IMG/VR virus record: IMGVR_UViG_2671180673_000012
DNA length: 21,281 nt
DNA from: a virus
Lineage: Duplodnaviria; Heunggongvirae; Uroviricota; Caudoviricetes
Direction: 5' to 3' (one strand)
Shown here: in pieces, positions 7,030 to 20,772 of the stretch
How positions within the stretch are numbered: the first letter of the stretch is position 1
Layout: each line of letters opens with the position of its first letter
The notes under the pieces: model-generated
Told to the model about the DNA's origin: nothing
Seen by the model: the letters and a program-made list of their open reading frames with translations, nothing else
Databases searched by the model: none
Made by a program: the position numbers and the translations under genes

Positions 7030-7035
7030 ACATAG

Positions 7036-7063: not shown

Positions 7064-7077
7064 AGATAGTCTGGCTG

Positions 7078-7106: not shown

Positions 7107-7136
7107 TTGCTCGAGGCATAACGTAGAAGGTTGGCT

Positions 7137-7412
7137 ATGAACTTAAGAGACTATTTAAAAGAGAAACATATCACCCAGCTACAGTTTGGGAAGCTAACGG
7201 GTTTATCTCAGGTGCATGTAAGTCGAGTGCTGGGGGGCTATGAAAGATTCAGCCCTGAAAAAGCATTACGTGTTGCTGAAGTAACGAATTTCGAGGTTAC
7301 ACCTCATGAACTCCGGCCTGATATTTACCCGAATCCAACCGACGGCTTACCTGTTGGATTCAAGGCTAACACACCAAATGCATCGGAGTTGATTCATGAA
7401 AATCAGGCATGA
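7137..7412 (+). CDS. Cro-like / YdaS-DicC-type HTH regulator
   Basis: ORF-track entry starts at a TTG at 7131; ATG at 7137 has a GAAGG RBS 6 nt upstream; HTH segment ITQLQFGKLTGLSQVHVSRV; first rightward gene opposite the repressor. Confidence 0.7.
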   Translation: MNLRDYLKEKHITQLQFGKLTGLSQVHVSRVLGGYERFSPEKALRVAEVTNFEVTPHELRPDIYPNPTDGLPVGFKANTPNASELIHENQA

Positions 7413-7821
7413 GCACATCCGCATGGCGATGAATGCCTGGGCGCATCCGGACGGTGAAAAAGTTCCGGCAGCTGAAATAACCCGGGCTTATTTTGAGCTT
7501 GGTATGACGTTCCCGGAATTATATGACGACAGCCATCCGGAAGCCCTGGCTCGCAATACCCAGAAAATTTTCCGCTGGGTGGAGAAAGACACTCCTGATG
7601 CGGTTAAAAAAATTCAGGCGTTGTTACCAGCGATCGAAAAAGCAATGCCGCCTCTGCTGGTGGCCCGAATGCGCAGCCACAGTTCAGCTTATTTTCGGGA
7701 GCTGGTGGAGACGCGGGAACGACTGGTGAGAGACGCTGATGATTTTGTCGCAGTGGCGATCGCTGGTTTCAACCAGATGAATCGTGGTGGCCCTGCAGGA
7801 AATATTGTGGCCGTGCATTGA
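7396..7821 (+). CDS. YdaT-like regulatory protein (possible CII-position regulator)
   Basis: 141 aa starting MKIRHEHI; GGAG RBS 7 nt upstream; overlaps Cro-like gene end by 17 nt; assignment to the YdaT family is from recalled similarity. Confidence 0.55.
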   Translation: MKIRHEHIRMAMNAWAHPDGEKVPAAEITRAYFELGMTFPELYDDSHPEALARNTQKIFRWVEKDTPDAVKKIQALLPAIEKAMPPLLVARMRSHSSAYFRELVETRERLVRDADDFVAVAIAGFNQMNRGGPAGNIVAVH

Positions 7822-7892
7822 CTCGCAATATTCATACCGGATCACTTCCGGCAATTTGTGAGTAAAAAGATTCGGTATCAGAAGAGGTGAGT

Positions 7893-8933
7893 ATGGCTAA
7901 CGCCTGGCTCAGATTATGGCATGACATGCCAAATGACCCTAAGTGGCGAACAATTGCCAGGGTGTCAGGGCAGCCAATTGCAACAGTGATGGCAGTGTAT
8001 ATCCACCTTCTGGTGAGCGCGTCACGAAATGTCACGACATGTCACGGCGTGTCACTACGTGGTCACATTGATGTCACGACGGAAGATTTAGCAAGTGCGC
8101 TTGATGTGACGGAAGAAGTAATTGATTCAATTTTACAGGCAATGCAGGGGCGGGTACTTGATGGAGATTTAATCACCGGATGGGAAAAACGCCAGGTACT
8201 GAAAGAGGACAATGGCAACGTTTCACAAACCGCGAAATCCCCGGCAGAGCGCAAGAGAGCGCAGCGCGAGAGGGAAAAATTACGAAAACAGAATGAGGGG
8301 TGTCACGACGAGTCACGCATATGTCACGACATGTCACGACGAGTCACGACAGATAAAGATACAGATAAAGAATTAAACCCCACACATAACGCGCACGTGC
8401 GCGAGAGTGCTCCGACCAGTGAGTCGAGTGGTACGCCGTTGCAGGCAGCAGAACCTGCATCCCTGGATGGACTGAGCGAACCCATCGGGAAATTTCCGAT
8501 GGTCGATGACTGGCATCCGTCGCCGGATTTTCGACGACGGGCTGCGTTGTGGGGGATGGCTTTGCCGGAGCCGGAATTTACACCTGCTGAACTTGCCGCT
8601 TTCCGGGACTACTGGGCAGCGGAGGGGAAAGTTTTCACGCAGGTTCAGTGGGAGCAGAAATTCGCCCGTCACGTAAATCACGTCAGGGCGCAGGTTAAGC
8701 CAGTCAGCAAGGGGGTAAACCATGCAGCAGCACCAGGTGGCACCGCATCACGGGCAGTTCAGGAAATTCGGGCAGCACGTGAGCAGTGGGAACGTGAAAA
8801 CGGATTTATCAGCGACGGAAACGGTCTGGAAGCTGTGGGAACTCATGGGGGAGGTTTATTCGAACCGCTGGACCCAGAAGAACGGGGCCGCACCTTCGAA
8901 GCTCTGGATTGCCCAGATTGGCGCGATGACTGA
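7893..8933 (+). CDS. Replication initiation protein (O-like position) with DnaT-like C-terminal region; contains iterons
   Basis: ORF-track entry starts at GTG 7887; ATG at 7893 has an AGAGG RBS 5 nt upstream; two clusters of 10-11-bp GTCACGAC repeats lie inside the coding sequence. Confidence 0.75.
   Translation: MANAWLRLWHDMPNDPKWRTIARVSGQPIATVMAVYIHLLVSASRNVTTCHGVSLRGHIDVTTEDLASALDVTEEVIDSILQAMQGRVLDGDLITGWEKRQVLKEDNGNVSQTAKSPAERKRAQREREKLRKQNEGCHDESRICHDMSRRVTTDKDTDKELNPTHNAHVRESAPTSESSGTPLQAAEPASLDGLSEPIGKFPMVDDWHPSPDFRRRAALWGMALPEPEFTPAELAAFRDYWAAEGKVFTQVQWEQKFARHVNHVRAQVKPVSKGVNHAAAPGGTASRAVQEIRAAREQWERENGFISDGNGLEAVGTHGGGLFEPLDPEERGRTFEALDCPDWRDD
8021..8080. repeat. Iteron cluster 1: six direct repeats of (T)GTCACGNC at 10-11 bp spacing
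   Basis: GTCAC(G) cores start at 8021, 8031, 8041, 8051, 8062 and 8073. Confidence 0.6.
8302..8370. repeat. Iteron cluster 2: five GTCACGAC repeats followed by an AT-rich AGATAAAG doublet
   Basis: GTCACG cores at 8302, 8312, 8323, 8333 and 8343; AGATAAAG at 8351 and 8363. Confidence 0.6.
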
Positions 8934-9387
8934 ACAGCAAATCCGGCTGGTCTGCCGTCAGTGCATGGACCGCTGCCGGGCGGGTGAAACGTGGCCCCCG
9001 GACCTAGCTGAGTTTGTTGCACTGATTTCGGAGAGTGGGGCAAATCCATTTGGTCTTACGGTGGATGCAGTGATGGAAGAGTACCGGCGCTGGCGCAATG
9101 AATCCTGGCGATACGACGGGAGTGATAAATACCCGTGGCCACAGCCTGTGCTGTACCACATCTGCCTCGAAATGCGTACCAGAGGGATTGAGCGCCAGAT
9201 GACGCAGGGTGAGTTAAAACGACTTGCAGAACGGCAACTGACGAAATGGGCAAAGCATGTTGGTAACGGGATGAGTGTTCCGCCAGTGCGACGACAACTG
9301 GAAGGGGCGAAACACCCGCAAGGGCCAACGCCAATTGAACGGCTGAAACAGGAATACGAACGCCGGAAGGCAGCTGGTTTTATTTGA
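8722..9387 (+). CDS. Replication protein P-like (DnaB helicase loader family)
   Basis: Resembles lambda P as recalled (WIAQIGAMTEQQIRLVCRQ ... WPPDLAEFVALISE ... KYPWPQP); GGGGG RBS 6 nt upstream of ATG at 8722; start uncertain (alternatives at 8845 and 8926) because the ORF overlaps the upstream gene by 212 nt. Confidence 0.65.
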   Translation: MQQHQVAPHHGQFRKFGQHVSSGNVKTDLSATETVWKLWELMGEVYSNRWTQKNGAAPSKLWIAQIGAMTEQQIRLVCRQCMDRCRAGETWPPDLAEFVALISESGANPFGLTVDAVMEEYRRWRNESWRYDGSDKYPWPQPVLYHICLEMRTRGIERQMTQGELKRLAERQLTKWAKHVGNGMSVPPVRRQLEGAKHPQGPTPIERLKQEYERRKAAGFI

Positions 9388-10584: not shown

Positions 10585-10641
10585 GTGAAATTAGCTATCA
10601 GGCTTCAATTACCGCTGGCATTCGCATCAAAGGAGAGGAGC

Positions 10642-10941
10642 ATGGAAATAAAACCAGAGGATGAGTTAAGCAATATCGTTTTATTTCCGGTAAAAGAGGA
10701 TGACCCTCGTAATCAGGTTAATTTTCTTTATGAGCCATCGGAAAGACCATATTGTCATCACGCCTCTGTTCGGGTTGACGAAAAAGAGCGTCAGGTCCGC
10801 TGTAAAATCTGCGGTGCAGTTGTGGAGCCGTTTGACTGGATGCTCTCTGTGGCGAAAAGAGAAACCAGACTGGCAGATGATGTAAGGCTATTGCGCCAGG
10901 AGGAACAGGAAAGGCGGAAAAATATAGAAAAGTTAATTTAG
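10642..10941 (+). CDS. Small hypothetical protein with putative zinc-binding C/H cluster
   Basis: ATG at 10642 preceded by GGAGAGGAG; CHH ... CKICG motif; ORF-track entry begins at an upstream GTG. Confidence 0.5.
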   Translation: MEIKPEDELSNIVLFPVKEDDPRNQVNFLYEPSERPYCHHASVRVDEKERQVRCKICGAVVEPFDWMLSVAKRETRLADDVRLLRQEEQERRKNIEKLI

Positions 10942-11093
10942 ATTGAGCGTAACGCGAAAGCGCGGATATGCAGGGCGACAAAATCCAGAACTGAATAATT
11001 AAATTTAGCACTGTAAATAAAATCAAATCCTTAACCGGAGGGATTTCTGCACCCTCAGAACATCAGGAGGCCGTCCGAAAGGGCGGTAGTGAA

Positions 11094-11276
11094 ATGCGAA
11101 AATTCAAAATAATTATTGAAACGGGAATAGCCGGTGGAGATTTCGAGGATGAATTCGAAGTGGATGATGATGCAACACCAGATGAAATACAGGATGAAGC
11201 TAAAGATATTTTCTTTAACTACTGCAATTACTCATACCACGAAATAAAAGACGAAGAGGAAGAACAAAATGGCTGA
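11094..11276 (+). CDS. Small acidic hypothetical protein
   Basis: 60-aa ORF rich in D/E; GGAGG lies 23 nt upstream but is separated from the ATG by a GAAA-tetraloop hairpin. Confidence 0.4.
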   Translation: MRKFKIIIETGIAGGDFEDEFEVDDDATPDEIQDEAKDIFFNYCNYSYHEIKDEEEEQNG

Positions 11277-11445
11277 TTTTGGTTCAACTAAATATAACGC
11301 CAGTTTTGAAGAATGGCATGAACTGTTAATGGATTATGCAGAGTTACGCGGTGGAAGTGCCGCTGATGCTGAAGCATGGCGTGATGATTATGAAGCAGGG
11401 AAAACACCGGTCGAAGCATATTGTGATGAGTGGGGCGATGAATGA
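11269..11445 (+). CDS. Small hypothetical protein (58 aa)
   Basis: Hand-translated ORF MADFGSTKYNASFEEWHELLMDYAELRGGSAADAEAWRDDYEAGKTPVEAYCDEWGDE; GAGGAAG RBS; start and stop both overlap neighbours; below the ORF-track cutoff. Confidence 0.45.
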   Translation: MADFGSTKYNASFEEWHELLMDYAELRGGSAADAEAWRDDYEAGKTPVEAYCDEWGDE

Positions 11446-11801
11446 GCGAGATTAATTATCAGGAAGGGCATGAAAAGGTAGGGCAGGCAAAACCAGTGGC
11501 ATGGCGATATCGCTACGTGAAAAAAGGCGTTACAGACTTTCAGGGGAAGCAGTGGGTTGGTGACTGGAAATATGTCCCGACAAAAGAGGATTGTAACGAC
11601 AGACCAAACTATGAAATTCAGGCGTTATTCACGGCCCCGCCAGCTTCGGTGACATCAGAAGGACTGGTTAAAGCTGTGCGCTTTTATGAACAGGTACGGC
11701 GTGAGGATCCGCCAGTTGAAACCGGAGCATGGAAAGACGCTATTGACTGGGTACTCAAGGAGGCCTGCCTGGTTGTAAACACGGGCATCAAAGGAGGCTG
11801 A
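11442..11801 (+). CDS. Hypothetical phage protein (119 aa)
   Basis: ATG overlaps upstream stop (ATGA); continuous ORF in the coupled gene run. Confidence 0.6.
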   Translation: MSEINYQEGHEKVGQAKPVAWRYRYVKKGVTDFQGKQWVGDWKYVPTKEDCNDRPNYEIQALFTAPPASVTSEGLVKAVRFYEQVRREDPPVETGAWKDAIDWVLKEACLVVNTGIKGG

Positions 11802-12017
11802 ATGGGTATTGCCGCAAGTTATACCATGCATCTCTATTGTGATTGCCGCCAGTGTACGGATGGCAAATATCAGTCGCCAGATTTTGGTGAGTATATCGGT
11901 ACGTCATGGGCTGGCTGTGCAAAAGAGGCACGTAAAGATGGGTGGCGAATAAGTGCCGACAAAACGCGTGCTTTTGCGCCAGGGCATAAAATTTTGAGGA
12001 GCAACAAAGGAGAGTGA
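11802..12017 (+). CDS. Small Cys-rich hypothetical protein
   Basis: AAGGAGG RBS 4 nt upstream; start immediately follows the previous stop; CDCRQC motif. Confidence 0.55.
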   Translation: MGIAASYTMHLYCDCRQCTDGKYQSPDFGEYIGTSWAGCAKEARKDGWRISADKTRAFAPGHKILRSNKGE

Positions 12018-12018
12018 T

Positions 12019-12237
12019 GTGCCTACATTATTCAGAAAAGAATATCCGCGAAAAAGTAGAGCGACAGAATTTTTGTTTCTCATTCTGTTTATCGTGTTGA
12101 TGATACCGATATCCCCGTTAATTCTGGTATGGGGAATCGGAAAAATAATTGAGCCAGTTATTGAATTGTATAACGACGTGGTATGGACTCCGTTCAACAC
12201 ACTGCACAATAAAATTAATCCGTATAAGGAAAACTGA
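12019..12237 (+). CDS. Small predicted membrane protein
   Basis: GTG start with AGGAG RBS 6 nt upstream; hydrophobic segment FLFLILFIVLMIPISPLILVWGIG. Confidence 0.45.
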   Translation: MPTLFRKEYPRKSRATEFLFLILFIVLMIPISPLILVWGIGKIIEPVIELYNDVVWTPFNTLHNKINPYKEN

Positions 12238-12238
12238 T

Positions 12239-12502
12239 ATGGCAACTTTGACAAAAAAAGAACAGGCATGGTTGAACGAATTACAGGACGTTCTTGATCG
12301 CTGTCCATCACCGAAAAAAATTGGTTTTTACACCATTGGCGATAAAAGCATTTACCTGTATGACCTGCGCCGCATGGATGAAATCATGGAGGCTCTTGAT
12401 AATCGTTCGTCAATGGATTGGTGTGTTGCTGTCCATGATATGAATGCAGGGTTTGATGAAAAGATTTTGTTCCCGTCATCAGTTGAAAGCACTGCGGGTT
12501 AA
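12239..12502 (+). CDS. Hypothetical protein (87 aa)
   Basis: ATG at 12239 with AAGGA RBS 8 nt upstream; the ORF-track entry 12149..12502 is an upstream in-frame extension overlapping the previous gene. Confidence 0.55.
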   Translation: MATLTKKEQAWLNELQDVLDRCPSPKKIGFYTIGDKSIYLYDLRRMDEIMEALDNRSSMDWCVAVHDMNAGFDEKILFPSSVESTAG

Positions 12503-12512
12503 GGAGTAACAC

Positions 12513-12680
12513 ATGACCACTATTACCAAAGAACGTATTGAATTGTTCATTAAAAACCCGCTTGAAAACGGGCTTACCCGTGGTGAACAAATGGAACTGG
12601 CACGGATTGCGCTGGCATCGCTGGAAGCAGAGCCGGTTGTGTTCTGGTTTGAAAAATATCAAGAAGGGGCTACGGCATGA
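12513..12680 (+). CDS. Small hypothetical protein (55 aa), paralogous to the next gene
   Basis: Hand-translated [58 protein letters not shown]; AAGGAG RBS 6 nt upstream; stop overlaps next start (ATGA). Confidence 0.45.
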
Positions 12681-13021
12681 CGACTTTTACCAGAGAGCAG
12701 TTAATAGCTCACGCAGAGGAGACTATTGAAGCACAGAGACTGTGCATACCGGGCACAATCGACCATGACATCATCCGCACATATAAGATGGATATTGCTG
12801 TTCTGGAAATCGCACTGGTATCGCTGGCAGCAGAGCCAGCCGGTAAATTGCATGAATACAAACCAGTGGGATATCAGCGTCTGGTCGATGAGTTAACCAT
12901 GCTGGTAAAGCAGTTAACCTGGCAACTGAGGAAAGCGAAGCCAGACTGCAAATTACCGGATAAGGCGATGAGTTATCTGGAGCGGAACGGACTGATAAGC
13001 GTGGAGGATATTTTACGATGA
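12677..13021 (+). CDS. Hypothetical protein (114 aa), paralogous N-terminus to the preceding gene
   Basis: Starts [18 protein letters not shown] ... [15 protein letters not shown], sharing the MTT and L(A/V)SL(E/A)AEP motifs with the upstream small ORF. Confidence 0.55.
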
Positions 13022-13101
13022 CCTGGCCTGAAGCATTAACAACGGTAGGAATTGCGATGGCGGTGGCGCTGGTGGTGTATTCGATTTGCCGCTGGGGATA
13101 A
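13018..13101 (+). CDS. Possible 27-aa hydrophobic micro-protein
   Basis: ATGA-coupled [30 protein letters not shown]; no independent RBS; speculative. Confidence 0.3.
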
Positions 13102-13107
13102 AAACGG

Positions 13108-13136
13108 TTTGCGGGAAAAGGAGAGTTAAGTAGAAT
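13108..13136 (+). promoter_or_regulatory. Candidate hok mRNA promoter
   Basis: TTTGCG, 17-nt spacer, TAGAAT; predicted start just upstream of a GCUUGAGGCU-like leader resembling the 5' end of hok-family mRNAs. Confidence 0.35.
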
Positions 13137-13194
13137 TGCAGCGGGTGCTTGAGGCTATCTGTCTCAGGCATGAACACCAAAAGGCAGATAGAGA

Positions 13195-13265
13195 AAAGCC
13201 CCAGTTAACATTACGCGTCCGGCAAGACGCTTAACATTAATCTGAGGCCATATCTATGCTCTACA
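13195..13265 (-). ncRNA. Putative Sok-like antisense RNA region (approximate)
   Basis: Inferred only from hok/sok architecture, where the antisense RNA overlaps the mok-like start region of the leader; boundaries not determinable from sequence. Confidence 0.3.
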
Positions 13266-13312
13266 CACGTAGGTTAGCCTCTTACGTGCCGAAAGGCAAG
13301 GAGAAGCAGGCT

Positions 13313-13468
13313 ATGAAGCAGCAAAAGGCGATGCTAATCGCCCTGATCGTCATCTGTTTAACCGTCATTGTGACGGCACTGGTAACGAGGAAAGACCTCT
13401 GCGAGGTACGAATCCGAACCGGCCAGACGGAGGTCGCTGTCTTCACAGCTTACGAACCTGAGGAGTAA
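13313..13468 (+). CDS. hokD: Hok/Gef-family type I toxin (51 aa)
   Basis: MKQQKAMLIALIVICLTVIVTALVTRKDLCEVRIRTGQTEVAVFTAYEPEE: single transmembrane helix plus conserved RK(D/S)LCE(V/I)R motif; AGGAG RBS 9 nt upstream; the ORF-track entry from 13256 is an in-frame mok-like extension. The hokD/relF assignment is from recalled sequence. Confidence 0.85.
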   Translation: MKQQKAMLIALIVICLTVIVTALVTRKDLCEVRIRTGQTEVAVFTAYEPEE

Positions 13469-13536
13469 GAGACCCGGCGGGGGAGTAATCTCCCGCCACC
13501 TCTGATGTGCCAGGCATCCTCAACGCACCCGCACTT

Positions 13537-13558
13537 AACCCGCTTCGGCGGGTTTTTG
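13537..13558 (+). terminator. Rho-independent terminator (copy 1 of duplicated terminator)
   Basis: ACCCGC-TTCG-GCGGGT hairpin followed by TTTTT. Confidence 0.7.
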
Positions 13559-13569
13559 CATTAGTCTGG

Positions 13570-13598
13570 TTGACAAAAATAGAAAAATGCGAAAATAT
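13570..13598 (+). promoter_or_regulatory. Candidate promoter of the AT-rich two-gene insert
   Basis: Perfect TTGACA -35, 17-nt spacer, weak AAATAT -10, about 35 nt upstream of the 13634 ATG. Confidence 0.35.
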
Positions 13599-13633
13599 GT
13601 GGTTTACGAATTCTAAAAAAAGCGAAACTTGAA

Positions 13634-14284
13634 ATGAATGAAAATCAGTTAGCTCCTTGTTGGGAATTTCAACCTTATCTTGCTGAAAACTATGTTCGCC
13701 ACTTGTTGGCGGAGATCGCTAACGTACTTGAGCAGCTGTACTATCATAAGCACGCATTAGACAGCAACTGGTCTGAAGGTGTAAGGGCTTATGATTGGGT
13801 CAGAAATCATCTTATTCAAAATGAAGATGCAATTCCTGGCCTTGAGATGATTTCCAAGGGGTTGGACTATGTAGTTGCTTTAAATAAAGTTCCGCTACAA
13901 TTTACCAAAGATTGCATTAATAACCCCAAAAAGAAACATCGTCTGCGTCGAAATAAAGTAGAGTATGAGCAGCTCTCATTGTTTGGTGATGTTGAGGCTG
14001 AGCAAGATATTACATGGCGAGTCATAGCTGAGCCTTTTTTATCCGAAGAGGGCGATGGTGAATTAGAGTCCACACTGCCTCGTTGGGAGGTAGCTCTTGT
14101 TGGATTTAATACTTATGGTGCTCAGATTAGTATAGTTTCTCATCAATCTACAGCATCGATGCCGCTTATGCCTCTTGATTATAACACACTCCCTGACGAA
14201 GCGGAGATTAATAAGGTGCCTCTTCGCCGGCGTACGAAGGATAAAGATTTGGATGTGAGCAGTGATGGAACATCAGGTGAATAA
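13634..14284 (+). CDS. Hypothetical protein (216 aa), first gene of the insert; candidate effector/toxin partner
   Basis: Continuous ORF; about 33% GC over the first 60 nt against about 50% in flanking phage genes; no domain recognised by eye; 3' end overlaps the downstream gene by 20 nt. Confidence 0.6.
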   Translation: MNENQLAPCWEFQPYLAENYVRHLLAEIANVLEQLYYHKHALDSNWSEGVRAYDWVRNHLIQNEDAIPGLEMISKGLDYVVALNKVPLQFTKDCINNPKKKHRLRRNKVEYEQLSLFGDVEAEQDITWRVIAEPFLSEEGDGELESTLPRWEVALVGFNTYGAQISIVSHQSTASMPLMPLDYNTLPDEAEINKVPLRRRTKDKDLDVSSDGTSGE

Positions 14285-15368
14285 CTTCACTGAGTATCGG
14301 GGTGATAAGCTCAAACTAGCGAGAATGGCTGTTGGGCTTTCTTGTGAAGAGTTAGCCGAAAAAATTGGCAAGACAAAGCAATTCGTTAGCAAACTGGAGA
14401 AGGGGTGCAGGCCATCGGAGCAATGTCTTGAGTTAATATCTTCAGCGCTTATGATTAAGTCCAGTTTTCTTTTTACTGAACGAAAATACGCTCTGGAAAG
14501 TGATGTCTGCCATTTTCGGAGTAAGAAGTCCAGGACTCAAACGCTGACTAATAGTGTATTGGCCAGGGCTGAGATTCTTAATATTATAATTTCTGCTGTT
14601 GAAGGTGAAATCGAATTTCCTGACGTTAACATACCGGAGCACCCAGGGGCTGAATTACTTACTCCGAATGATATTGAGCGAGTGGCAGAAGATTGTCGCC
14701 GTGCCTGGAATTTAGGTCTTGGCCCTATATCATCAATGGTTAAATTGGCGGAGAGTTTAGGGGTAATCGTTGCGCATGTTACGGGAGTCGATGATCGTGT
14801 TGATGCTTTTACTGTTCACAATAACAGGCCTGTTATCATCAGGAACAATGTTAAAAAAAGCATATGTAGATTTCGCTCTGATTTAGGTCATGAATTAGGG
14901 CATTTAGTAATGCATGAGGGCATAACGACAGGTGATAAACTTACGGAATCACAAGCCGATCACTTTTCGAGCGCCTTATTAGTTCCCAGGTTATCTTTCA
15001 TTAAAGAATTTCCACGAATACGAGGTAAGCAATTCGACTGGAATGCTCTGGTTGAATTTAAACTTAGATGGAAAATCAGCCTTAAAATGTGTATTTATCG
15101 AGCCAGCGCATTAGGCTTATTGACCCAGGAACAGGCAAGAACTGGCTATATGCATCTTAATTCCAGAGGGTATACGAGAGTTGAACCTGGTGATGAACTT
15201 TTGCGCCCTGAAGAACCCGGCATGCTGGCCGAGGCGATTGAAATGCTGGATGATGCAACCTGGCTAAGAATTCTTATGAAAACTGGCTTGAGCCAAGATT
15301 TAATTCGTGAGTTGTTCTCCATCAACAGACCTATTACAAATCCAAGAAATATTTTCCAGATTGTTTGA
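14265..15368 (+). CDS. Fused XRE-family HTH + ImmA/IrrE-family (COG2856, HEXXH) zinc metallopeptidase
   Basis: N-terminal HTH (LSCEELAEKIGKTKQFVSKLEKG); HEXXH motif DLGHELGHLVMHEG in the central region; ATG at 14265 (ORF-track entry starts at GTG 14262). Confidence 0.8.
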   Translation: MEHQVNNFTEYRGDKLKLARMAVGLSCEELAEKIGKTKQFVSKLEKGCRPSEQCLELISSALMIKSSFLFTERKYALESDVCHFRSKKSRTQTLTNSVLARAEILNIIISAVEGEIEFPDVNIPEHPGAELLTPNDIERVAEDCRRAWNLGLGPISSMVKLAESLGVIVAHVTGVDDRVDAFTVHNNRPVIIRNNVKKSICRFRSDLGHELGHLVMHEGITTGDKLTESQADHFSSALLVPRLSFIKEFPRIRGKQFDWNALVEFKLRWKISLKMCIYRASALGLLTQEQARTGYMHLNSRGYTRVEPGDELLRPEEPGMLAEAIEMLDDATWLRILMKTGLSQDLIRELFSINRPITNPRNIFQIV

Positions 15369-15372
15369 GTAT

Positions 15373-15393
15373 ACCCGCTTCGGCGGGTTTTTT
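15373..15393 (+). terminator. Rho-independent terminator (copy 2, same sequence as 13537-13558)
   Basis: ACCCGC-TTCG-GCGGGT hairpin followed by TTTTTT. Confidence 0.7.
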
Positions 15394-15412
15394 GTTTTTA
15401 TTTTCAACGTGT

Positions 15413-15442
15413 TTGAAGTTTTGGACGGTGCCAGAATAGAAT
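15413..15442 (+). promoter_or_regulatory. Candidate promoter for the downstream rightward genes
   Basis: TTGAAG, 18-nt spacer, TAGAAT. Confidence 0.4.
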
Positions 15443-15477
15443 CAAAAATACTTAAGTAGCGCGCAGGGAGAAGAGGG

Positions 15478-15699
15478 ATGGACCCCGAACAGGGGGAGTG
15501 CTATTTATCTGGAAGGATTCTGTTGATGAAAATCGAAGAATTACGTGAAATTTTTAGTGAAGATGGCCTCTATGCTGTGCGCGTTGAGAATGGGGGTATT
15601 ACCTACACAGCGTTAATTCCTGATGATCATGTAGTGTTATCTGTTGAGGCATTCATTGAATACTTGGAAAGACTCGGTTTCAAGGTAGTTCGGGAATAA
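15478..15699 (+). CDS. Small hypothetical protein
   Basis: ATG at 15478 preceded by GGGAG; alternative ATG at 15526 has a GGAAGGA RBS 8 nt upstream, giving a 57-aa product. Confidence 0.5.
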   Translation: MDPEQGECYLSGRILLMKIEELREIFSEDGLYAVRVENGGITYTALIPDDHVVLSVEAFIEYLERLGFKVVRE

Positions 15700-15758
15700 G
15701 TTATAATACGTGAGCCAGCCTGAACAACTGGCAACCTGCAGCGCCATTGGAGATGACA

Positions 15759-16031
15759 ATGGCGCATAATTTCAAATTTCGCAATTCTGATTCTGCCTTT
15801 GCCAGCAGGCACGGGTGGCGTTCTCACGCATTCAAATATGACTGGTATCAGCACGATCCCTGTACTGAAGAACAGGCCGAATGGCTGATTCATAACTACC
15901 GCAGACGTGGATATGAGTTTAGGAAAGCCCTCACCCTCGATTATCGTCACTGGATAATCTACGTCAGACTCCCTTATTCCGAACGCCCACCGCGTCCGTC
16001 CCGCACATTCCAGCAACGCATCTGGAGGTAA
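15759..16031 (+). CDS. Hypothetical protein (about 90 aa)
   Basis: ATG at 15759 with GGAG 6 nt upstream (ORF-track entry starts at TTG 15747); stop abuts the next gene. Confidence 0.5.
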   Translation: MAHNFKFRNSDSAFASRHGWRSHAFKYDWYQHDPCTEEQAEWLIHNYRRRGYEFRKALTLDYRHWIIYVRLPYSERPPRPSRTFQQRIWR

Positions 16032-16032
16032 C

Positions 16033-17079
16033 GTGCGGGTATTACTTCGACCTGTTCTGGTACCGGAACTCGGGCTGGTGATCGTTAAGCCGGGCCGTGA
16101 ATCCATGCCGGTATTCCACAATACCCGGGTACTGGTGGAGCCGGAACCGAAAAGCATGCGTAATCTGCCGTCCGGGGTCGTTCCTGCCGTTCGCCAGCCG
16201 CTGGCGGAGGATAAATCATTACTGCCATTTTTCAGCGACGAACGAGTGATTCGTGCTGCTGGTGGCGCTGGCGCATTGTCTGANTGGTTACTGCGCCATG
16301 TTAAATCCTGCCAGTGGCCACACGGCGATTATCACCACAGTGAAACCGTCATTCACCGTTATGGTACCGGCGCAATGGTGTTGTGCTGGCACTGCGACAA
16401 CCAGCTGCGCGACCAGACCTCCGAATCACTCGGGCAACTTGCTCACCAAAACCTGTNTGCATGGATGATTGACGTCATACGCCATGCAATGAATGGCTCG
16501 CAGGAACGGGAATTATCGCTGGCTGAATTATCCTGGTGGGCGGTCCGCAATCAGGTGGCGGACGCGCTACCGGAAGCGGTATTACGTCGTTCGCTGGGGT
16601 TGCGTGCGGAAAAAATCCGCTCAATGTACCGTGAAAGCGACATCGTACCGGGAGAGCAGACCGCCACCAGCATACTGAAGCAGCGCACAAAAAATCTTGC
16701 GCCGCTGCCTCACGCCCACCAGCAAAACCCGCCACAGGAAGAGACGGTGGTCAGCATTGCCGTTGATCCTGAGTCTCCGGAATCTTTCATGAAACGACCT
16801 AAACGTCGCCGCTGGGTTAACGAGAAATACACACGCTGGGTGAAGACACAGCCGTGTGCGTGTTGTGGTAAGCCAGCCGACGATCCCCATCACCTGATTG
16901 GTCATGGTCAGGGCGGAATGGGGACAAAATCTCACGATATTTTCACGCTACCGCTGTGTCGGGAGCATCACAACGAGCTTCATGCGGATCCTCTGGCGTT
17001 CGAAGAAAAACATGGTTCTCAGGTTGATTTAATTTTTCGTTTTCTTGATCACGCCTTTGCAACTGGCGTGCTTGGGTAA
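16033..17079 (+). CDS. DUF968/YdfU-like protein with C-terminal HNH-like Cys/His motif
   Basis: 348 aa; CACCGKPADDPHHLIGHGQGG ... CREHHNELH at the C-terminus; GTG start with GGAGG RBS 4 nt upstream; two n-derived X residues. Confidence 0.75.
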   Translation: MRVLLRPVLVPELGLVIVKPGRESMPVFHNTRVLVEPEPKSMRNLPSGVVPAVRQPLAEDKSLLPFFSDERVIRAAGGAGALSXWLLRHVKSCQWPHGDYHHSETVIHRYGTGAMVLCWHCDNQLRDQTSESLGQLAHQNLXAWMIDVIRHAMNGSQERELSLAELSWWAVRNQVADALPEAVLRRSLGLRAEKIRSMYRESDIVPGEQTATSILKQRTKNLAPLPHAHQQNPPQEETVVSIAVDPESPESFMKRPKRRRWVNEKYTRWVKTQPCACCGKPADDPHHLIGHGQGGMGTKSHDIFTLPLCREHHNELHADPLAFEEKHGSQVDLIFRFLDHAFATGVLG

Positions 17080-17091
17080 AAGAGGTGACTG

Positions 17092-17466
17092 ATGCTCATA
17101 GATTTGGTTTTACCTTACCCGCCGACGGTGAACACTTACTGGCGACGCCGTGGCAGCACATATTTTATCTCGGAGGAGGGAAAGCGTTATCGCCGGGCTG
17201 TGGCGCTTATTGTTCGCCAGCAGCGGCTGAAATTAAGCCTGTCCGGAAGGCTGGCGATAAAGGTGATTGCAGAGCCACCGGATAAGCGTCGTCGCGACCT
17301 GGACAATATCCTGAAAGCACCGCTGGATGCGCTGACGCATGCGGGAGTGTTAATGGACGATGAGCAGTTTGATGAAATCAATATCGTTCGTGGTCAGCCA
17401 GTATCTGGTGGACGTATGGGGGTGAAGATTTACCCCATAATGCATGAAGAGCAGGTCAAAAAATGA
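17092..17466 (+). CDS. rusA: RusA-family Holliday junction resolvase
   Basis: 124 aa; RusA-like motifs (PPTVNTYWRRRG ... KRRRDLDNILKAPLDALTHAGVLMDDEQ); GAGGTG RBS 5 nt upstream. Confidence 0.85.
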   Translation: MLIDLVLPYPPTVNTYWRRRGSTYFISEEGKRYRRAVALIVRQQRLKLSLSGRLAIKVIAEPPDKRRRDLDNILKAPLDALTHAGVLMDDEQFDEINIVRGQPVSGGRMGVKIYPIMHEEQVKK

Positions 17467-18284
17467 AACTGGAAGATTTACCGAAATACTACTCCCCAAA
17501 ATCCCCTGGCCTGACCGATGCATCGGCCTCAACGTCAAAAGATGCGCTGAGTATCACTGATGTGATGGCCGCGCAGGGCATGACACAGAATCGGGCTGAG
17601 ATGGGGTTTTCTGCGTTCCTGGGGAAAATGGGCATCAGTATGAATGACAGGGCGCGGGCAACAGAATTACTGGCAGATTATGCACTCAGTCGGTGCGATC
17701 GTGTGGCGGCGTTGAGAAAACTTCCGGCAGAAATAAAACCGGTAGTGATGCGCATTATGGCTTCGTATGCGTTTGAAGATTATGCCCGTAGCGCGGCGAG
17801 CAAAAAACAGTGCCCCTGCTGTCACGGAAAAAAATTTATTGAAAGCGAGGTTTTTACAAACAAGATCCAGTATCCGGATGGTAAGCCACCAGTGTGGGCA
17901 AAGTGCACAAAAGGCGTGTATCCGTCTTACTGGGAAGAATGGAAAAAAGTCAGGGAGGTGGTAAAAGTTGCCTGTCCGGAGTGTGGCGGAAAGGGTGAGG
18001 TTTCCACCGCCTGTAAGGATTGCCGTGGGCGTGGTGTCGCCATTCATCGTGAAGAGTCGGTAAAACGTGGTATGCCTGTTATCAGAGANTGCCAGCGTTG
18101 TGGTGGTCGTGGCTGTGAAAGNCTNCCATCAACGGAGGCATTTAATGCCATATGCAAAGTGACGAGTGCTATCACGCTTGATACGTGGAAAAAATCAGTG
18201 AAACGCTTTTACGATACGTTGGTGGTTCGGTTTGACATTGAAGAGGCATGGGCGGAGCGGCAGTTAAAGAGGGTAACGCGATAG
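17463..18284 (+). CDS. Late-gene antitermination protein Q
   Basis: 273 aa starting MKLEDLPKYYSPKSP; repeated CxxCxGxG zinc-finger motifs; ATGA coupling to rusA; immediately upstream of the late promoter and terminator. Confidence 0.85.
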   Translation: MKLEDLPKYYSPKSPGLTDASASTSKDALSITDVMAAQGMTQNRAEMGFSAFLGKMGISMNDRARATELLADYALSRCDRVAALRKLPAEIKPVVMRIMASYAFEDYARSAASKKQCPCCHGKKFIESEVFTNKIQYPDGKPPVWAKCTKGVYPSYWEEWKKVREVVKVACPECGGKGEVSTACKDCRGRGVAIHREESVKRGMPVIRXCQRCGGRGCEXXPSTEAFNAICKVTSAITLDTWKKSVKRFYDTLVVRFDIEEAWAERQLKRVTR

Positions 18285-18289
18285 TGTTG

Positions 18290-18317
18290 TTGATTTTTCC
18301 CGAATCTGTGGTAAATT
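18290..18317 (+). promoter_or_regulatory. Candidate late promoter (pR'-like) with extended -10
   Basis: TTGATT, 16-nt spacer, TGgTAAATT, directly downstream of Q. Confidence 0.5.
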
Positions 18318-18365
18318 TGCTCTAACGATGGGCGTTTTATGCCTGACGTTAGAAGATTTTTTACA

Positions 18366-18389
18366 CCCCGCCGCCTGGCGGGTTTTTTA
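18366..18389 (+). terminator. Rho-independent terminator (tR'-like), presumed target of Q antitermination
   Basis: CCCGCC-GCCT-GGCGGG hairpin followed by TTTTTT, about 50 nt downstream of the promoter -10. Confidence 0.6.
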
Positions 18390-18510
18390 TGACTGAAATC
18401 GCGTCAGTACAGTAAACGCGCTGGTGGCGGTGAATACCTGTCTTTCAGCTTGCTGGCTTTTTCGACAAGAGTTATTGGTGTGTCACGTTAACCGGAAAAG
18501 GGAAAAAGAC

Positions 18511-18708
18511 ATGCTAAAACAGCAGGATATGACAGAAACCGCCAGAGTNGTGTTTAATGAATTAAGCGTTACCGAACCGGCGACAGTCGGGGAGATNGCN
18601 CAGAATACTTACCTTTCACGCGAACGCTGCCAGTTAATACTGACCCAGCTGGTTATGGCGGGTCTGGCAGACTATCAGTTCGGTTGTTACAGACGCCTTC
18701 CGCAGTGA
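18511..18708 (+). CDS. Small hypothetical protein (65 aa)
   Basis: ATG at 18511 with AAGGGA upstream; the ORF-track entry from 18424 is an N-terminal extension; n-derived X residues present. Confidence 0.45.
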   Translation: MLKQQDMTETARXVFNELSVTEPATVGEXXQNTYLSRERCQLILTQLVMAGLADYQFGCYRRLPQ

Positions 18709-18718
18709 AGGCTTTTTT
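18695..18718 (+). terminator. Hairpin plus T-tract overlapping the small-ORF stop
   Basis: GCCTTC-CGCAGT-GAAGGC followed by TTTTTT. Confidence 0.5.
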
Positions 18719-18858
18719 ATTTGTGGTAAATGGGCGGCTGGTGGGTGTTAGGGGCACCCACCAGCCATCTGCTCATGCGTTGGGTTCACAAGCAAACCTC
18801 AGGCCCACTGCTTTGCGCAAAAGCAGAATGAGCCTATCAGAGACAGGCTTAATGATCC

Positions 18859-19908
18859 ATGCTTAATACTGTAAAAATATCCAGTTGTGAGTTAATCAAC
18901 GCCGACTGCCTGGAATTTATCCGGTCGTTACCCGAAAATTCTGTTGACCTGATAGTCACGGACCCGCCGTACTTTAAAGTGAAGCCTGAGGGCTGGGATA
19001 ACCAGTGGAAGGGCGACGATGATTACCTGAAGTGGCTGGACCAGTGTCTGGCGCAGTTCTGGCGGGTGCTGAAACCTGCCGGAAGTCTTTACCTGTTCTG
19101 TGGTCATCGCCTGGCATCTGATATCGAAATCATGATGCGTGAACGCTTCAGTGTGCTGAACCATATTATCTGGGCGAAGCCGTCCGGACGCTGGAACGGA
19201 TGCAACAAGGAAAGCCTGCGGGCGTATTTCCCCGCCACAGAGCGCATTCTGTTCGCGGAACATTATCAGGGGCCGTATCGTCCGAAAGATGCCGGGTATG
19301 CGGCGAAGGGCAGTGCACTGAAACAGCATGTGATGGCCCCGCTGATTTCTTACTTTCGTGATGCGCGCGCGGCCCTGGGGATAACGGCAAAACAGATTGC
19401 AGATGCCACAGGAAAGAAAAACATGGTGTCGCACTGGTTCAGTGCCAGTCAGTGGCAGCTACCGAACGAAAGCGATTATCTGAAATTACAGTCGCTGTTT
19501 GCCCGGGTGGCAGAAGAGAAACATCAGCGCGGTGAACTGGAAAAGCCCCACCACCAGCTGGTGGATACGTATACGTCACTGAACCGGCAGTATGTGGAGC
19601 TGCAGAGTGAATATAAGCATCTGCGGCGGTATTTTGGTGTGACGGCGCAGGTGCCGTACACGGATGTGTGGACACATAAACCGGTGCAGTTCTATCCCGG
19701 GAAACATCCGTGCGAAAAACCGGCAGAAATGCTGCAGCAGATAATCAGCGCAAGCAGTCGTCCGGGTGACCTGGTTGCAGATTTTTTTATGGGCTCAGGT
19801 TCAACGGTAAAAGCNGCACTGGCGCTCGGGCGTCGTGCGATTGGCGTTGAACTGGAGACCGGACGTTTTGAGCAGACAGTCAGGGAAGTTCAGGATTTAA
19901 TCGTTTGA
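18859..19908 (+). CDS. DNA N6-adenine/N4-cytosine-family methyltransferase (DPPY motif), orphan phage methyltransferase
   Basis: 349 aa; motif IV DPPY near the N-terminus (LIVTDPPYF) and AdoMet-binding FFMGSGST near the C-terminus (beta-class order); no adjacent restriction endonuclease gene. Confidence 0.85.
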   Translation: MLNTVKISSCELINADCLEFIRSLPENSVDLIVTDPPYFKVKPEGWDNQWKGDDDYLKWLDQCLAQFWRVLKPAGSLYLFCGHRLASDIEIMMRERFSVLNHIIWAKPSGRWNGCNKESLRAYFPATERILFAEHYQGPYRPKDAGYAAKGSALKQHVMAPLISYFRDARAALGITAKQIADATGKKNMVSHWFSASQWQLPNESDYLKLQSLFARVAEEKHQRGELEKPHHQLVDTYTSLNRQYVELQSEYKHLRRYFGVTAQVPYTDVWTHKPVQFYPGKHPCEKPAEMLQQIISASSRPGDLVADFFMGSGSTVKXALALGRRAIGVELETGRFEQTVREVQDLIV

Positions 19909-19957
19909 AACGGATGAGATTGCAGAATTAATTACGCACCATTATTATTCTGCTNCC

Positions 19958-20033
19958 GGCCCTTTAGCTCAGTGGTGAGAGCGAGCGACTCATAATCGCC
20001 AGGTCGCTGGTTCAAATCCAGCAAGGGCCACCA
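19958..20033 (+). tRNA. ileZ: tRNA with CAU anticodon, Ile2 (lysidine)-type by resemblance to ileX/ileY
   Basis: Manual cloverleaf: acceptor GGCCCTT/AAGGGCC, D-arm GCTC..GAGC, anticodon loop CTCATAA, T-loop TTCAAAT, encoded CCA. Confidence 0.85.
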
Positions 20034-20040
20034 TCACATA

Positions 20041-20117
20041 CCGCCATTAGCTCATCAGGAAAGAGCGCCAGCCTTCGAAGCTGGTTGCGCGGAGTTCGGG
20101 TCCCCGAAGGCGGTCCA
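20041..20117 (+). tRNA. argN: tRNA-Arg (anticodon UCG) with atypical T-loop and one acceptor-stem mismatch
   Basis: Manual fold: D-arm GCTC..GAGC, anticodon stem CCAGC/GCTGG, loop CTTCGAA, T-loop TTCGGGT, encoded CCA. Confidence 0.7.
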
Positions 20118-20130
20118 TTATCTGTATCCT

Positions 20131-20207
20131 GCGTTGTTAGCTCAGCCGGACAGAGCAATTGCCTTCTAAGCAATCGGTCACTGGTTCGAATCCAGTACAA
20201 CGCGCCA
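20131..20207 (+). tRNA. argO: tRNA-Arg (anticodon UCU)
   Basis: Manual fold: acceptor GCGTTGT/ACAACGC, anticodon stem ATTGC/GCAAT, loop CTTCTAA, T-loop TTCGAAT, encoded CCA. Confidence 0.85.
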
Positions 20208-20223
20208 CACTTATTTTCCCTGG

Positions 20224-20246
20224 CTCGCTTTTGCGGGCTTTTTTTT
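20224..20246 (+). terminator. Rho-independent terminator after the tRNA cluster
   Basis: GCTCGC-TTT-GCGGGC hairpin (one G-U pair) followed by eight T. Confidence 0.55.
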
Positions 20247-20443
20247 AAATGTCTCACAATTCAGGCGGTTGACTGTTGTCTGGTTTGCGGGGAGTTTGTT
20301 AAAAGAAACTGGCATGGTGAATCCCCCTGTGCGGAGGGGCAATCAGCGAGTAGGTATATGGGATAATCGCGGATTCAGGTGCTGGTACTGAATTCACCGG
20401 GAGGCACCCGGCACCATGCAATGGCACATAGCGCCACTCTCCA

Positions 20444-20465
20444 GCCCCTCTCCGGAGGGGCTTTT
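20444..20465 (+). terminator. Hairpin terminator-like element
   Basis: GCCCCTC-TCCG-GAGGGGC followed by TTTT. Confidence 0.4.
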
Positions 20466-20656
20466 CTGTGCCGGATACATCACAGTTTCTGGAACCTTAG
20501 GTACTACAGTATCAGTCAGGGTGCTATATTTTCAGATGTGATGAAAGCCTGTCAGCAGGCAGGGCGTATCGGAAATGACCCAGTAGAGAAAACGTTGACT
20601 CAGATACCGGTGCTGAGTTACCGGGAAACCGGCATCACATGACCGCTATCCTTCCA

Positions 20657-20683
20657 GGCCCATCCGCTCCGGTGGGCCTTTTT
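20657..20683 (+). terminator. Hairpin terminator-like element just upstream of the IS boundary
   Basis: GGCCCA ... TGGGCC stem followed by TTTTT. Confidence 0.4.
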
Positions 20684-20772
20684 ACTGCAGAAAACAGGTT
20701 CCCCGTTAAATGCTATGTTGAACCGCCCCGGGAATCCTGGAGACTAAACTTCCTGAGAAAGAGGTAAACAGG

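Follow-up and report, generated by a model that had tools for sequence, protein, structure and literature searches.

The open reading frame at 14265-15368 of the window (the whole 21,281-nucleotide stretch of viral DNA that was analyzed) probably encodes RmrA, the antitoxin half of a two-gene RosmerTA toxin-antitoxin/anti-phage module that works by the mechanism proposed below. RosmerTA is an already catalogued kind of system. By definition, its antitoxin, RmrA, carries an ImmA/IrrE (M78) domain, usually with an N-terminal XRE helix-turn-helix (HTH), and its toxin, RmrT, is diverse and mostly unannotated. The features of the two genes are as follows:

13634..14284, + strand: rmrT, predicted toxin, 216 amino acids (PADLOC RmrT model PDLC03929)
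14265..15368, + strand: rmrA, probable antitoxin, 367 amino acids (Pfam, PADLOC, structure prediction, fold comparison, and alignment of relatives)
14298..14474, + strand: XRE/HTH_3 DNA-binding domain of RmrA, residues 12-70
14511..14522, + strand: H83-F84-R85-S86 of RmrA, the "FR motif", with a candidate self-cleavage site between F84 and R85 (conservation, analogy with CapH and VapB52)
14889..14948, + strand: zinc site of RmrA, consisting of H209-E210-L-G-H213, H217, a 14-residue loop, and E228 as third ligand (invariance in relatives)

The rmrA gene extends on the + strand from an ATG at 14265 to a TGA stop at 15366-15368, giving a protein of 367 amino acids. The mechanical reading frame begins one codon upstream, at GTG 14262 (368 amino acids); the RefSeq record in E. 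coli 042 (WP_000401168.1) shares the ATG start. In the numbering of the 368-residue product, Pfam finds HTH_3 at residues 17-63 (30.1 bits vs a cut-off of 23) and Peptidase_M78 at residues 177-282 (42.6 bits vs a cut-off of 22). The original prediction, that one chain joins an XRE HTH to an ImmA/IrrE peptidase, had looked to Pfam for such scores, and profile searches, structure prediction, and gene context now agree on it. The HTH (residues 12-70), a five-helix lambda-repressor-like domain, is followed by the HFRS linker motif (83-86) and a long helix (92-113), then by the M78 zinc peptidase (about 134-250) and a C-terminal helical domain (259-351).

RmrA has the M78 zinc peptidase and the N-terminal XRE HTH named in the definition of RosmerTA antitoxins. 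The likeness to these antitoxins, also foreseen in the original prediction, holds up well: 14 PADLOC RmrA models match the protein, the best of them over its full length with E=6e-105; an RmrT model, in turn, matches the overlapping gene upstream (E=5e-25). The protein is 29% identical over 301 residues to the verified RmrA of E. coli OLC-716 (E=2e-35). Also, the NCBIfam "spr1629 family repressor/antitoxin" matches it partially, under the family cut-off.

The HELGH motif, previously placed around residue 215, is present, its exact position being residues 209-213 (nt 14889-14903). H209, E210, H213, H217, and E228 are invariant in 82 of 82 RmrA relatives from several phyla, and A231 and F234 are likewise invariant in all 82. 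E228 lies within the motif TExQA(N/D/H)xF, that is, in the M78 context E-x-x-A-(N/D/H)-x-F. The zinc peptidase had been predicted on the understanding that it would need an M78/ImmA fold and a third zinc ligand downstream of HEXXH. The ligand is E228, and the fold is evident both in the Pfam score and in fold searches, which match RmrA to CapP (about 150 residues aligned) and to IrrE. In profile alignment, HEXXH and the downstream Glu are in register with those of CapP (7t5t) and of 9vzy. A single-sequence search of the PDB with RmrA returned HTH proteins only; the peptidase part was matched to the PDB by profile or fold searches only. RmrA lacks the GAF domain that holds the ssDNA groove of CapP and IrrE; residues 259-351 are all-helical in the predicted structure, so ssDNA gating is not simply transferable from CapP. 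It also lacks a cysteine switch loop occluding the zinc, as its H213-E228 loop contains no Cys and is 14 residues long, vs 24 in VapB52. D224 of RmrA occupies the position held by Cys in some Pseudomonas homologs.

The last 20 nt of rmrT overlap rmrA, and the two genes are co-oriented neighbors in a two-gene operon. RmrT, predicted to be soluble, matches PADLOC RmrT PDLC03929 over residues 7-209 (E=4.6e-25), and it has no sequence match in Pfam, NCBIfam, or the PDB. Its family is small, with 69 representatives at E<=1e-3 among 1.84 billion proteins. In the loci examined, members of the family always lie upstream of an RmrA homolog, and the toxin-first pair is kept in 7 close loci (RmrA identity 58-100%) and in 13 more distant gammaproteobacterial loci. 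When the genes partnered upstream with 80 distant relatives of RmrA were compared by BLAST, at least 8 clusters resulted. Links between these clusters are weak by hhalign, with best probabilities of 68-80%, and 19% to the RmrT family of the window. The original prediction did not name the upstream gene as a toxin partner, nor did it describe the cassette as a prophage moron.

The linker just past the HTH carries the FR motif, a candidate self-cleavage site. R85 is invariant in 82 of 82 relatives, and position 84 is aromatic in 80 of them. The F84-R85 pair comes about 13 residues after the HTH domain, in a linker that is probably flexible (pLDDT is about 60 for residues 81-90 of the predicted structure). 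CapP cleaves CapH between F82 and R83, and VapB52 of M. tuberculosis has an FR motif, F75-R76, at the junction of its N-terminal and middle domains; judged by sequence, the position of F84-R85 matches both. RmrA has an aromatic-Arg site soon after the HTH, in presence and in position, with cleavage itself being a prediction.

Four features lie at the edges of the pair:

13539..13558, + strand: left copy of a terminator hairpin, CCCGCTTCGGCGGGTTTTTG, at the 3' end of hokD/mok and at the left edge of the cassette (terminator scan, HannyBb alignment)
13568..13598, + strand: repeat unit 1, GGTTGACA-N13-GCGAAA, with a candidate sigma-70 promoter and a putative RmrA operator over the -35 (conservation)
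13601..13627, + strand: repeat unit 2, GGTTTACG-N13-GCGAAA, putative second operator, between the -10 and the start codon of rmrT (direct repeat, conservation)
15374..15394, + strand: right-hand hairpin copy, CCCGCTTCGGCGGGTTTTTTG, serving the operon as intrinsic terminator and bounding the cassette on the right (terminator scan, RNA fold)

Upstream of rmrT, about 66 nt are conserved, and only those: two 33-nt units that include TTGACA-17-AAATAT. The units form a direct repeat with a 33-nt spacing, placing them three helical turns apart, and the tandem repeat is kept in 7 diverged loci in which the surrounding DNA is unrelated. Within the window, the repeat motif occurs in two exact copies only, both before rmrT. 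It counts against a role as operators that the repeats are direct, inverted repeats being usual for XRE dimers. A weak palindrome around GAATTC in unit 2 is not conserved across loci. The candidate promoter consists of a -35 TTGACA (13570-13575), a 17-nt spacer, and a -10 AAATAT (13593-13598). A generic promoter scan did not call it, because its -10 is weak (3 of 6 matches). The promoter at 13570-13598, proposed in the original prediction, is nonetheless accepted, because it is the sole upstream element conserved across the diverged loci. An extended -10, TGcGAAAAT, with a 15-nt spacer was rejected, as its TG is not conserved in other loci. At the other end of the operon, the right hairpin begins 5 nt past the rmrA stop codon and folds as RNA with -10.9 kcal/mol. 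The phage HannyBb has, by alignment, a single copy of the hairpin and no cassette. The F84-R85 site and the tandem 33-nt promoter repeat are new details for a RosmerTA locus.

The rmrT-rmrA cassette, 1.8 kb long, low in GC, and equipped with its own promoter and terminator, lies between hokD and rem. It forms a self-contained "moron" within the nin (late-regulatory) region of a lambdoid prophage of E. coli, and 13 kb separate rmrA from the integrase. In different prophages the cassette, moving as one unit, occupies different positions. It is carried by 232 of 5426 complete E. coli genomes (about 4%), among them the pathogen reference strains 042 and ABU 83972, and E. coli 042 is 100% identical across the 2.6-kb query. 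Neither of these two strains was found in those parts of the Millman supplementary lists that were examined. RefSeq labels rmrT as "hypothetical protein" and rmrA as "helix-turn-helix domain-containing protein". A separate cI-like/ydaS/ydaT immunity region occupies 6568-7821, 6.5 kb from the cassette, and an S24 autoprotease domain is missing from its CI-like repressor (6568-7029).

The most likely role for RmrA, by analogy with better known relatives, is that of an autorepressing antitoxin that would cut its own linker when triggered and thereby free the toxin. In uninfected cells, RmrA would neutralize RmrT, and its HTH would bind both 33-nt units, over the -35 and over the transcript start, so as to repress the operon. 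Upon an infection signal, the peptidase would cut the RmrA linker between F84 and R85, within a chain or between subunits. If CapP and VapB52 are a guide, the trigger may be ssDNA or some other product of phage replication. The cut would detach the N-terminal, DNA-binding domain from the remainder of RmrA, and both repression and neutralization would be lost. Freed RmrT would then arrest or kill the cell, aborting the spread of the phage. We infer the double role of RmrA, as repressor and as sensor-protease, from homology and from two precedents, the self-cleavage of VapB52 and the action of CapP on CapH.

A more specific version of self-cleavage is tentative and on the whole doubtful. RmrA would be a one-chain CapH-plus-CapP switch, cutting itself between F84 and R85 and responding not to ssDNA but to some other gate, such as RmrT occupancy or a specific phage protein. 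Gating of another sort is proposed because RmrA has neither the cysteine switch loop nor the GAF domain. RmrT would in that case be a new kind of toxin, with a core distantly like PD-(D/E)xK nucleases and without their catalytic motif. More speculatively still, the peptidase might also cut the S24-less CI-like repressor of the prophage in trans, coupling defense to induction. The sequence NYVRSS after the HTH of that repressor was considered as a trans-substrate, and the motif is too weak to claim.

Perhaps the peptidase acts instead on the toxin, continuously cleaving it or processing a pro-toxin rather than cutting itself, with the toxin set off once some phage product inhibits the peptidase or diverts it. 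The family keeps its catalytic site in full, so catalysis does matter. Also, AlphaFold failed on the RmrT-RmrA complex of phage Kita, which fits a transient contact between enzyme and substrate, and the essentiality of ClpP in a related E. coli pair suggests proteolytic control of the toxin level. Nonetheless, this reading seems rather unlikely. RmrA carries in its own linker an invariant F-R of the kind at which M78 peptidases are known to cut, and VapB52 mutated in its zinc site still binds toxin, while the wild type cuts itself. Furthermore, the flexible parts of the RmrT family show no evident counterpart of FR in the form of a conserved aromatic-Arg pair; W128-R129, which is conserved, falls at the start of a predicted beta-strand.

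One might also suppose that RmrA is purely a regulatory switch of the ImmR/ImmA, DdrO/IrrE, or CapH/CapP type, governing prophage induction or neighboring genes, with the 216-residue protein as regulated cargo and not a toxin. The domain content of RmrA does equal that of the repressor/protease pairs, Makarova et al. (2009) proposed a LexA-like regulatory role for Xre-COG2856 fusions, and the prophage's own CI-like repressor is without an S24 autoprotease domain. The idea is unlikely all the same: the prophage has its separate immunity region, the cassette moves as a unit among differing prophage positions, the gene upstream is recognized by an RmrT toxin model, and related pairs act as toxin-antitoxin systems. 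The locus differs from an ImmR/ImmA-type induction module in that the two functions are fused, the location is the nin region, the immunity region is elsewhere, and the putative operator motif is found only before rmrT.

It is equally improbable that the roles are reversed, with the Xre-peptidase doing the harm, as a protease that infection sets free, and the 216-residue protein acting as its inhibitor or sensor. The precedent is PD-lambda-2, whose Xre-peptidase was toxic when overexpressed alone and whose upstream HigB-like protein rescued the cells. However, PD-lambda-2 is a three-gene system in which the partner is HigB instead. In the two-gene system Vmi480/Vmi470, it is the small upstream gene that is lethal; the HTH-peptidase gene does no harm and protects. 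Also, in another member of RosmerTA, deletion of rmrA alone was unobtainable. The last alternative, that HEXXH arose by chance in an ordinary XRE regulator, has nothing to recommend it beyond the shortness of the motif, and it is already refuted by the M78 score above the gathering cut-off, the match to the RmrA model, the invariance of HEXXH and E228, and the fold shared with CapP and IrrE.

The immediate gain is one of routine annotation: two RefSeq genes can be relabeled as a prophage-borne RosmerTA defense/toxin-antitoxin pair. Beyond this, the F-R site, invariant across the family, predicts where RmrA cuts itself. By-products are a defined 66-nt fragment, the putative promoter/operator, and exact boundaries of the cassette for cloning. 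If self-cleavage proves true, RosmerTA joins VapBC52 among toxin-antitoxin systems in which the antitoxin is its own protease.

The closest point of comparison is RosmerTA itself, as described in E. coli OLC-716 (Millman et al. 2022). Phage resistance has been shown for that system and for the one in Gordonia phage Kita. The OLC-716 operon also has two genes, toxin first, with an antitoxin of about 370 amino acids, and RosmerTA PADLOC models match both genes of the window. Its RmrA has the N-terminal XRE HTH, a linker reading VSFRAM (CHFRSK in the window), HELGH, and the downstream Glu. The toxins, however, are unrelated: between the verified OLC-716 toxin, of 239 amino acids, and the 216-residue RmrT of the window there is no detectable similarity (hhalign probability 0.1).

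Similar in arrangement is Vmi480/Vmi470 of Vibrio mimicus (Luo et al. 2015), with the toxin gene again preceding that of an HTH plus Zn-peptidase antitoxin. The 198-residue toxin, assayed in E. coli, is lethal, and it is neutralized when the 362-residue Vmi470 is co-expressed. That pair adjoins mobI, whereas the pair in the window lies in a lambdoid prophage. A marine gammaproteobacterial family of 198- and 362-residue proteins, including a member from Vibrio anguillarum, shares 28% and 46% identity with the pair of the window and is found by the profile of the window's RmrT. There is therefore a circumstantial case, based on protein size, taxon, and family rather than on the sequence of Vmi480 itself, that the pair in the window is homologous to Vmi480/Vmi470. 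A related pair in E. coli E101, with which ClpP became essential (Rousset et al. 2021), is likewise prophage-borne and may be the pair of the window or a paralog of it. The accessions of E101 and of Vmi480 were not found in cluster look-ups.

VapB52/VapC52 (Rv2515c/Rv2514c) of M. tuberculosis (NAR 2026) offers the nearest precedent for the mechanism. As in RmrA, an XRE-like domain stands at the N-terminus of VapB52, an FR motif marks the domain junction, and the peptidase is of the IrrE type, with HEXXH plus Glu. VapB52 needs its N-terminal domain to bind toxin, and self-cleavage triggered by ssDNA removes that domain. The profile of RmrA matches PDB 9vzy_A (393 amino acids, "HTH cro/C1-type domain-containing protein") at 5e-8, and 9vzy_A is probably VapB52, to go by its length and its residue numbers, which are consistent with H216/H220 of the 2026 paper. 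The mycobacterial system differs in that the toxin is a PIN-domain tRNase, and VapB52, at 415 amino acids, carries a further C-terminal domain, which plugs the toxin's active site, and a cysteine switch, C229, absent in RmrA.

Other systems share the peptidase and depart further from RmrA. CapH and CapP (Lau et al. 2022; Calloji et al. 2026) are two separate proteins, of which CapP, gated by ssDNA, contains a cysteine switch loop and a GAF domain, and they control transcription of an adjacent immune operon (CBASS and other defense operons) rather than neutralizing a toxin. ImmR/ImmA of ICEBs1 and DdrO/IrrE of Deinococcus are also encoded by separate genes and control the excision of an element or a repair regulon. 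Moreover, DdrO is cut between L and R in its C-terminal dimerization domain, and the domains of IrrE are in the order peptidase-HTH-GAF. Finally, PD-lambda-2 (Vassallo et al. 2022), which defends E. coli against lambda, resembles the window's pair in that an Xre-peptidase fusion adjoins a toxin-like gene, and differs in having three genes (encoding a HigB-like protein, the Xre-peptidase, and a P4-type antitoxin), with the Xre-peptidase as the toxic component.

The reading frame assigned to rmrA is real, and the original prediction read it correctly. The gene runs on the plus strand from ATG 14265 to TGA 15366-15368 (367 aa), and E. coli 042 carries an identical gene in RefSeq with the same start (WP_000401168.1, "helix-turn-helix domain-containing protein"); taken mechanically, the frame opens one codon earlier, at GTG 14262. 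The fusion of an XRE helix-turn-helix (HTH) to an M78 peptidase in a single chain is borne out by Pfam, with HTH_3 at 30.1 bits (cut-off 23) and Peptidase_M78 at 42.6 bits (cut-off 22). The HELGH core, predicted around residue 215, lies at residues 209-213 (nt 14889-14903), and the third zinc ligand, on which the prediction had been made to depend, is present as E228 within the motif TExQA(N/D/H)xF. Conservation was judged from an alignment of 82 relatives, in which RmrA of the window and the experimentally verified RmrA of E. coli OLC-716 join 80 loci recovered by scanning 185,579 species genomes. In this alignment H209, E210, H213, H217, E228, A231, F234, and P241 are all invariant, and RmrA has every feature of the M78 family that could be tested here. 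The likeness to RosmerTA antitoxins also holds, as the full length of the protein is matched by the PADLOC RmrA model (E=6e-105) and by 13 other RmrA models.

A RosmerTA antitoxin should be accompanied by a toxin. The open reading frame immediately upstream, rmrT (13634-14284, 216 aa), overlaps rmrA by 20 nt, and its product matches the PADLOC RmrT toxin model (E=4.6e-25, residues 7-209 of 216). RmrT found no sequence match in Pfam, NCBIfam, or PDB. Six other loci carry the pair (Limnobaculum, Xenorhabdus, a second E. coli type, Yersinia, Raoultella, and one metagenomic contig); in these, RmrA is 58-76% identical and each time follows an RmrT homologue of 209-217 aa, with an overlap of 14-35 nt. 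More distantly, the pair is found in 13 gammaproteobacterial loci. More broadly, RmrA relatives at 29-47% identity were found in 80 genome loci, from Proteobacteria, Actinobacteria, Chloroflexi, cyanobacteria, and others, and nearly all are overlapped on their upstream side by an ORF, which in most cases encodes 200-350 aa. BLAST sorts the partners of these distant relatives (L007-L086) into at least eight clusters, connected only by weak profile links, some through hhalign at probabilities of 68-80%. The latter hint that RmrT toxins counted as "different" may in some cases be distantly homologous. Such diversity of partners beside one RmrA family fits the published picture of RosmerTA, in which one antitoxin family is paired with many toxins, and the pair in the window shows every RosmerTA feature testable here.

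Only the 66 nt before the start codon of rmrT are conserved among seven loci; DNA farther upstream is unrelated. This block is a tandem 33-nt unit, GGTT(G/T)AC(A/G)-N13-(G/A)CGAAA, at -66 and -33, each copy conserved in the seven diverged loci:

13568-13594, repeat unit 1, containing the -35 element
13601-13627, repeat unit 2, between the -10 element and the ATG of rmrT

Unit 1 holds TTGACA (13570-13575), which is followed after a 17-nt spacer by AAATAT (13593-13598). In the other loci, positions A2, A5, and T6 of the -10 element are kept (AAATAT, AAAGAT, AATCAT). Although a generic promoter scan did not call the TTGACA-17-AAATAT site, we accept the predicted promoter on the strength of this conservation. 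The window has no further exact copy of the motif. The two units are putative operators for RmrA, one over the -35 element and the other over the transcript start, and at 33 nt apart they should present the same face of the helix. Their arrangement as direct repeats is unusual for XRE dimers. The leader of rmrT is A-rich, with no recognizable Shine-Dalgarno sequence. At the other end, a terminator hairpin and T-run lie 5 nt past the stop codon of rmrA.

The cassette sits within a lambdoid prophage, whose other features are as follows:

1-1131, minus strand, integrase
1422-3896, minus strand, exonuclease
4375-5229, minus strand, Rha
6568-7029, minus strand, CI-like XRE repressor
7396-7821, YdaT
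7887-9387, replication genes
13256-13468, hokD
16033-17079, DUF968
17092-17466, RusA
17463-18284, Q antiterminator
18859-19908, DNA methylase
19958-20207, three tRNAs

Directly upstream of the cassette, the hokD/mok type I toxin gene (Pfam HOK_GEF 2.9e-23) places two unrelated toxin systems side by side. The Q-type antiterminator (Pfam Antiterm 8.7e-48) includes a DnaJ-like CXXCXGXG zinc-finger segment, its match to DnaJ_CXXCXGXG (5e-6) falling below the cut-off. The tRNAs, downstream of the methyltransferase gene, are CAU (Met by ARAGORN, Ile by RefSeq), Arg-UCG, and Arg-UCU. The window is mosaic relative to E. coli 042, with 99.6% identity over 10613-20720 and 77-96% elsewhere. It contains 17 single ambiguous bases (1541, 1722, 2001, 2024, 2060, 2077, 2169, 16284, 16457, 18089, 18122, 18125, 18549, 18597, 18600, 19815, and 19955), which put X residues into the DUF968 and Q proteins; the rmrTA cassette has none.

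HannyBb, mEp460, and similar phages match the flanks only and lack the cassette. When the junctions are aligned, a single hok terminator hairpin in these phages leads directly into the rem region. In the window the hairpin occurs twice (13539-13558 and 15374-15394), so that the 20-21-nt direct repeat bracketing the cassette is the terminator hairpin itself, CCCGCTTCGGCGGGTTTTT(T)G. Between the two hairpins lie 1815 bp of 41.5% GC, within 2-kb flanks of 47.5% and 51.7% GC. The duplication could have arisen by recombination between similar terminators or could have been made at insertion. Other loci have the cassette ahead of hok, between Q and the holin gene, or beside a methylase, and it is found just downstream of a T-run in the window and in at least two other loci (L087 and L089). 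Since its positions differ and it has its own boundaries, the cassette, with its own promoter and terminator, is a mobile "moron" and stands outside the immunity circuit of the prophage. A second E. coli prophage (L005) has a paralogous rmrTA (58% RmrA identity) upstream rather than downstream of hok.

Every close relative of rmrTA found here lies in the late-regulatory region of a prophage. The cassette and its flanks (query 13200-15800) match E. coli 042, ABU 83972, and others at 100% identity. Of 5426 complete E. coli genomes, 232 contain this stretch in full and 4722 have the flanks. The pair is also on two E. coli plasmids (99.5% identity), and tblastn against 50,697 deposited phage genomes returned no RmrT homologue.

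The most informative new feature is in the linker of RmrA, where H83-F84-R85-S86 follows the last HTH helix by about 13 residues, in a stretch (residues 81-90) modeled with lower confidence (pLDDT about 60). R85 is invariant (82 of 82 relatives), and an aromatic residue precedes it in 80 of them; the verified RmrA has VSFRAM at this position. Two precedents make use of this site. In the XRE repressor CapH, CapP cuts at F82|R83. VapB52, an antitoxin of M. tuberculosis, joins an XRE-like N-terminal domain to an IrrE-type peptidase through a junction with a conserved "FR motif" (F75-R76). Given ssDNA, VapB52 removes its own N-terminal domain by cleavage; this domain is needed to hold the toxin, and a zinc-site mutant does not cleave. 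The invariant motif and these precedents lead us to propose, as the most likely mechanism, that RmrA cleaves itself. It would then be repressor, antitoxin, and its own protease, all in one, binding the putative operators and neutralizing RmrT until some trigger caused a cut at F84|R85. The cut would part the HTH from the rest of the protein, so that RmrT would be both derepressed and released, perhaps leading to abortive infection. The CI-like repressor (153 aa, without an S24 autoprotease domain) has NYVRSS about 10 residues past its HTH, loosely resembling CHFRSK of RmrA. The resemblance is probably chance, though it raises the speculative idea that the M78 peptidase might cleave that repressor in trans.

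The RmrA family profile matches PDB 9vzy_A (393 aa) at 5e-8, and the alignment brings HEXXH and the Glu ligand into register; by length and residue numbering, this chain is probably VapB52, which has its parts in the same order as RmrA. In CapP and VapB52, a cysteine ("cysteine switch loop") occupies the zinc and holds the enzyme off until ssDNA binds. The H213-E228 loop of RmrA, in contrast, has 14 residues (24 in VapB52) and no cysteine, D224 standing where some Pseudomonas homologues have Cys, and beyond the peptidase the protein is predicted to be all helical. A search of RmrA for a CapP-type cysteine switch and a GAF domain found neither, and its trigger may therefore differ from that of CapP and VapB52. 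The full combination, a self-cleaving switch with a trigger other than ssDNA and a toxin of new fold, strikes us as unlikely.

The kind of system is already catalogued, and standard defence-finder models detect this copy. Makarova et al. (2009) had earlier reported Xre-COG2856 fusions adjacent to toxins. In the literature searched, we found neither a mechanism published for a RosmerTA system nor experimental work on this RmrT subtype. Compared to the RosmerTA of Millman et al. (2022), RmrA is 29% identical to the verified antitoxin (E=2e-35), but the verified toxin is unrelated to RmrT. Vmi480/Vmi470 of Vibrio mimicus, a lethal toxin of 198 aa with an HTH-peptidase antitoxin of 362 aa, is probably a member of the RmrT family seen here. 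A marine family of the same sizes, with members in Vibrio fluvialis and V. anguillarum, matches the profile of RmrT in the window and shows 28%/46% identity to the window's pair. A prophage pair of E. coli E101, 33%/42% identical to Vmi480/470, makes clpP essential and may be the window's pair or a paralogue. PD-lambda-2 is a caution, as there toxicity resides in the Xre-peptidase protein. To these known systems, the present analysis adds where the cassette begins and ends, the operator-like repeat in tandem ahead of rmrT, and the invariant F-R site.
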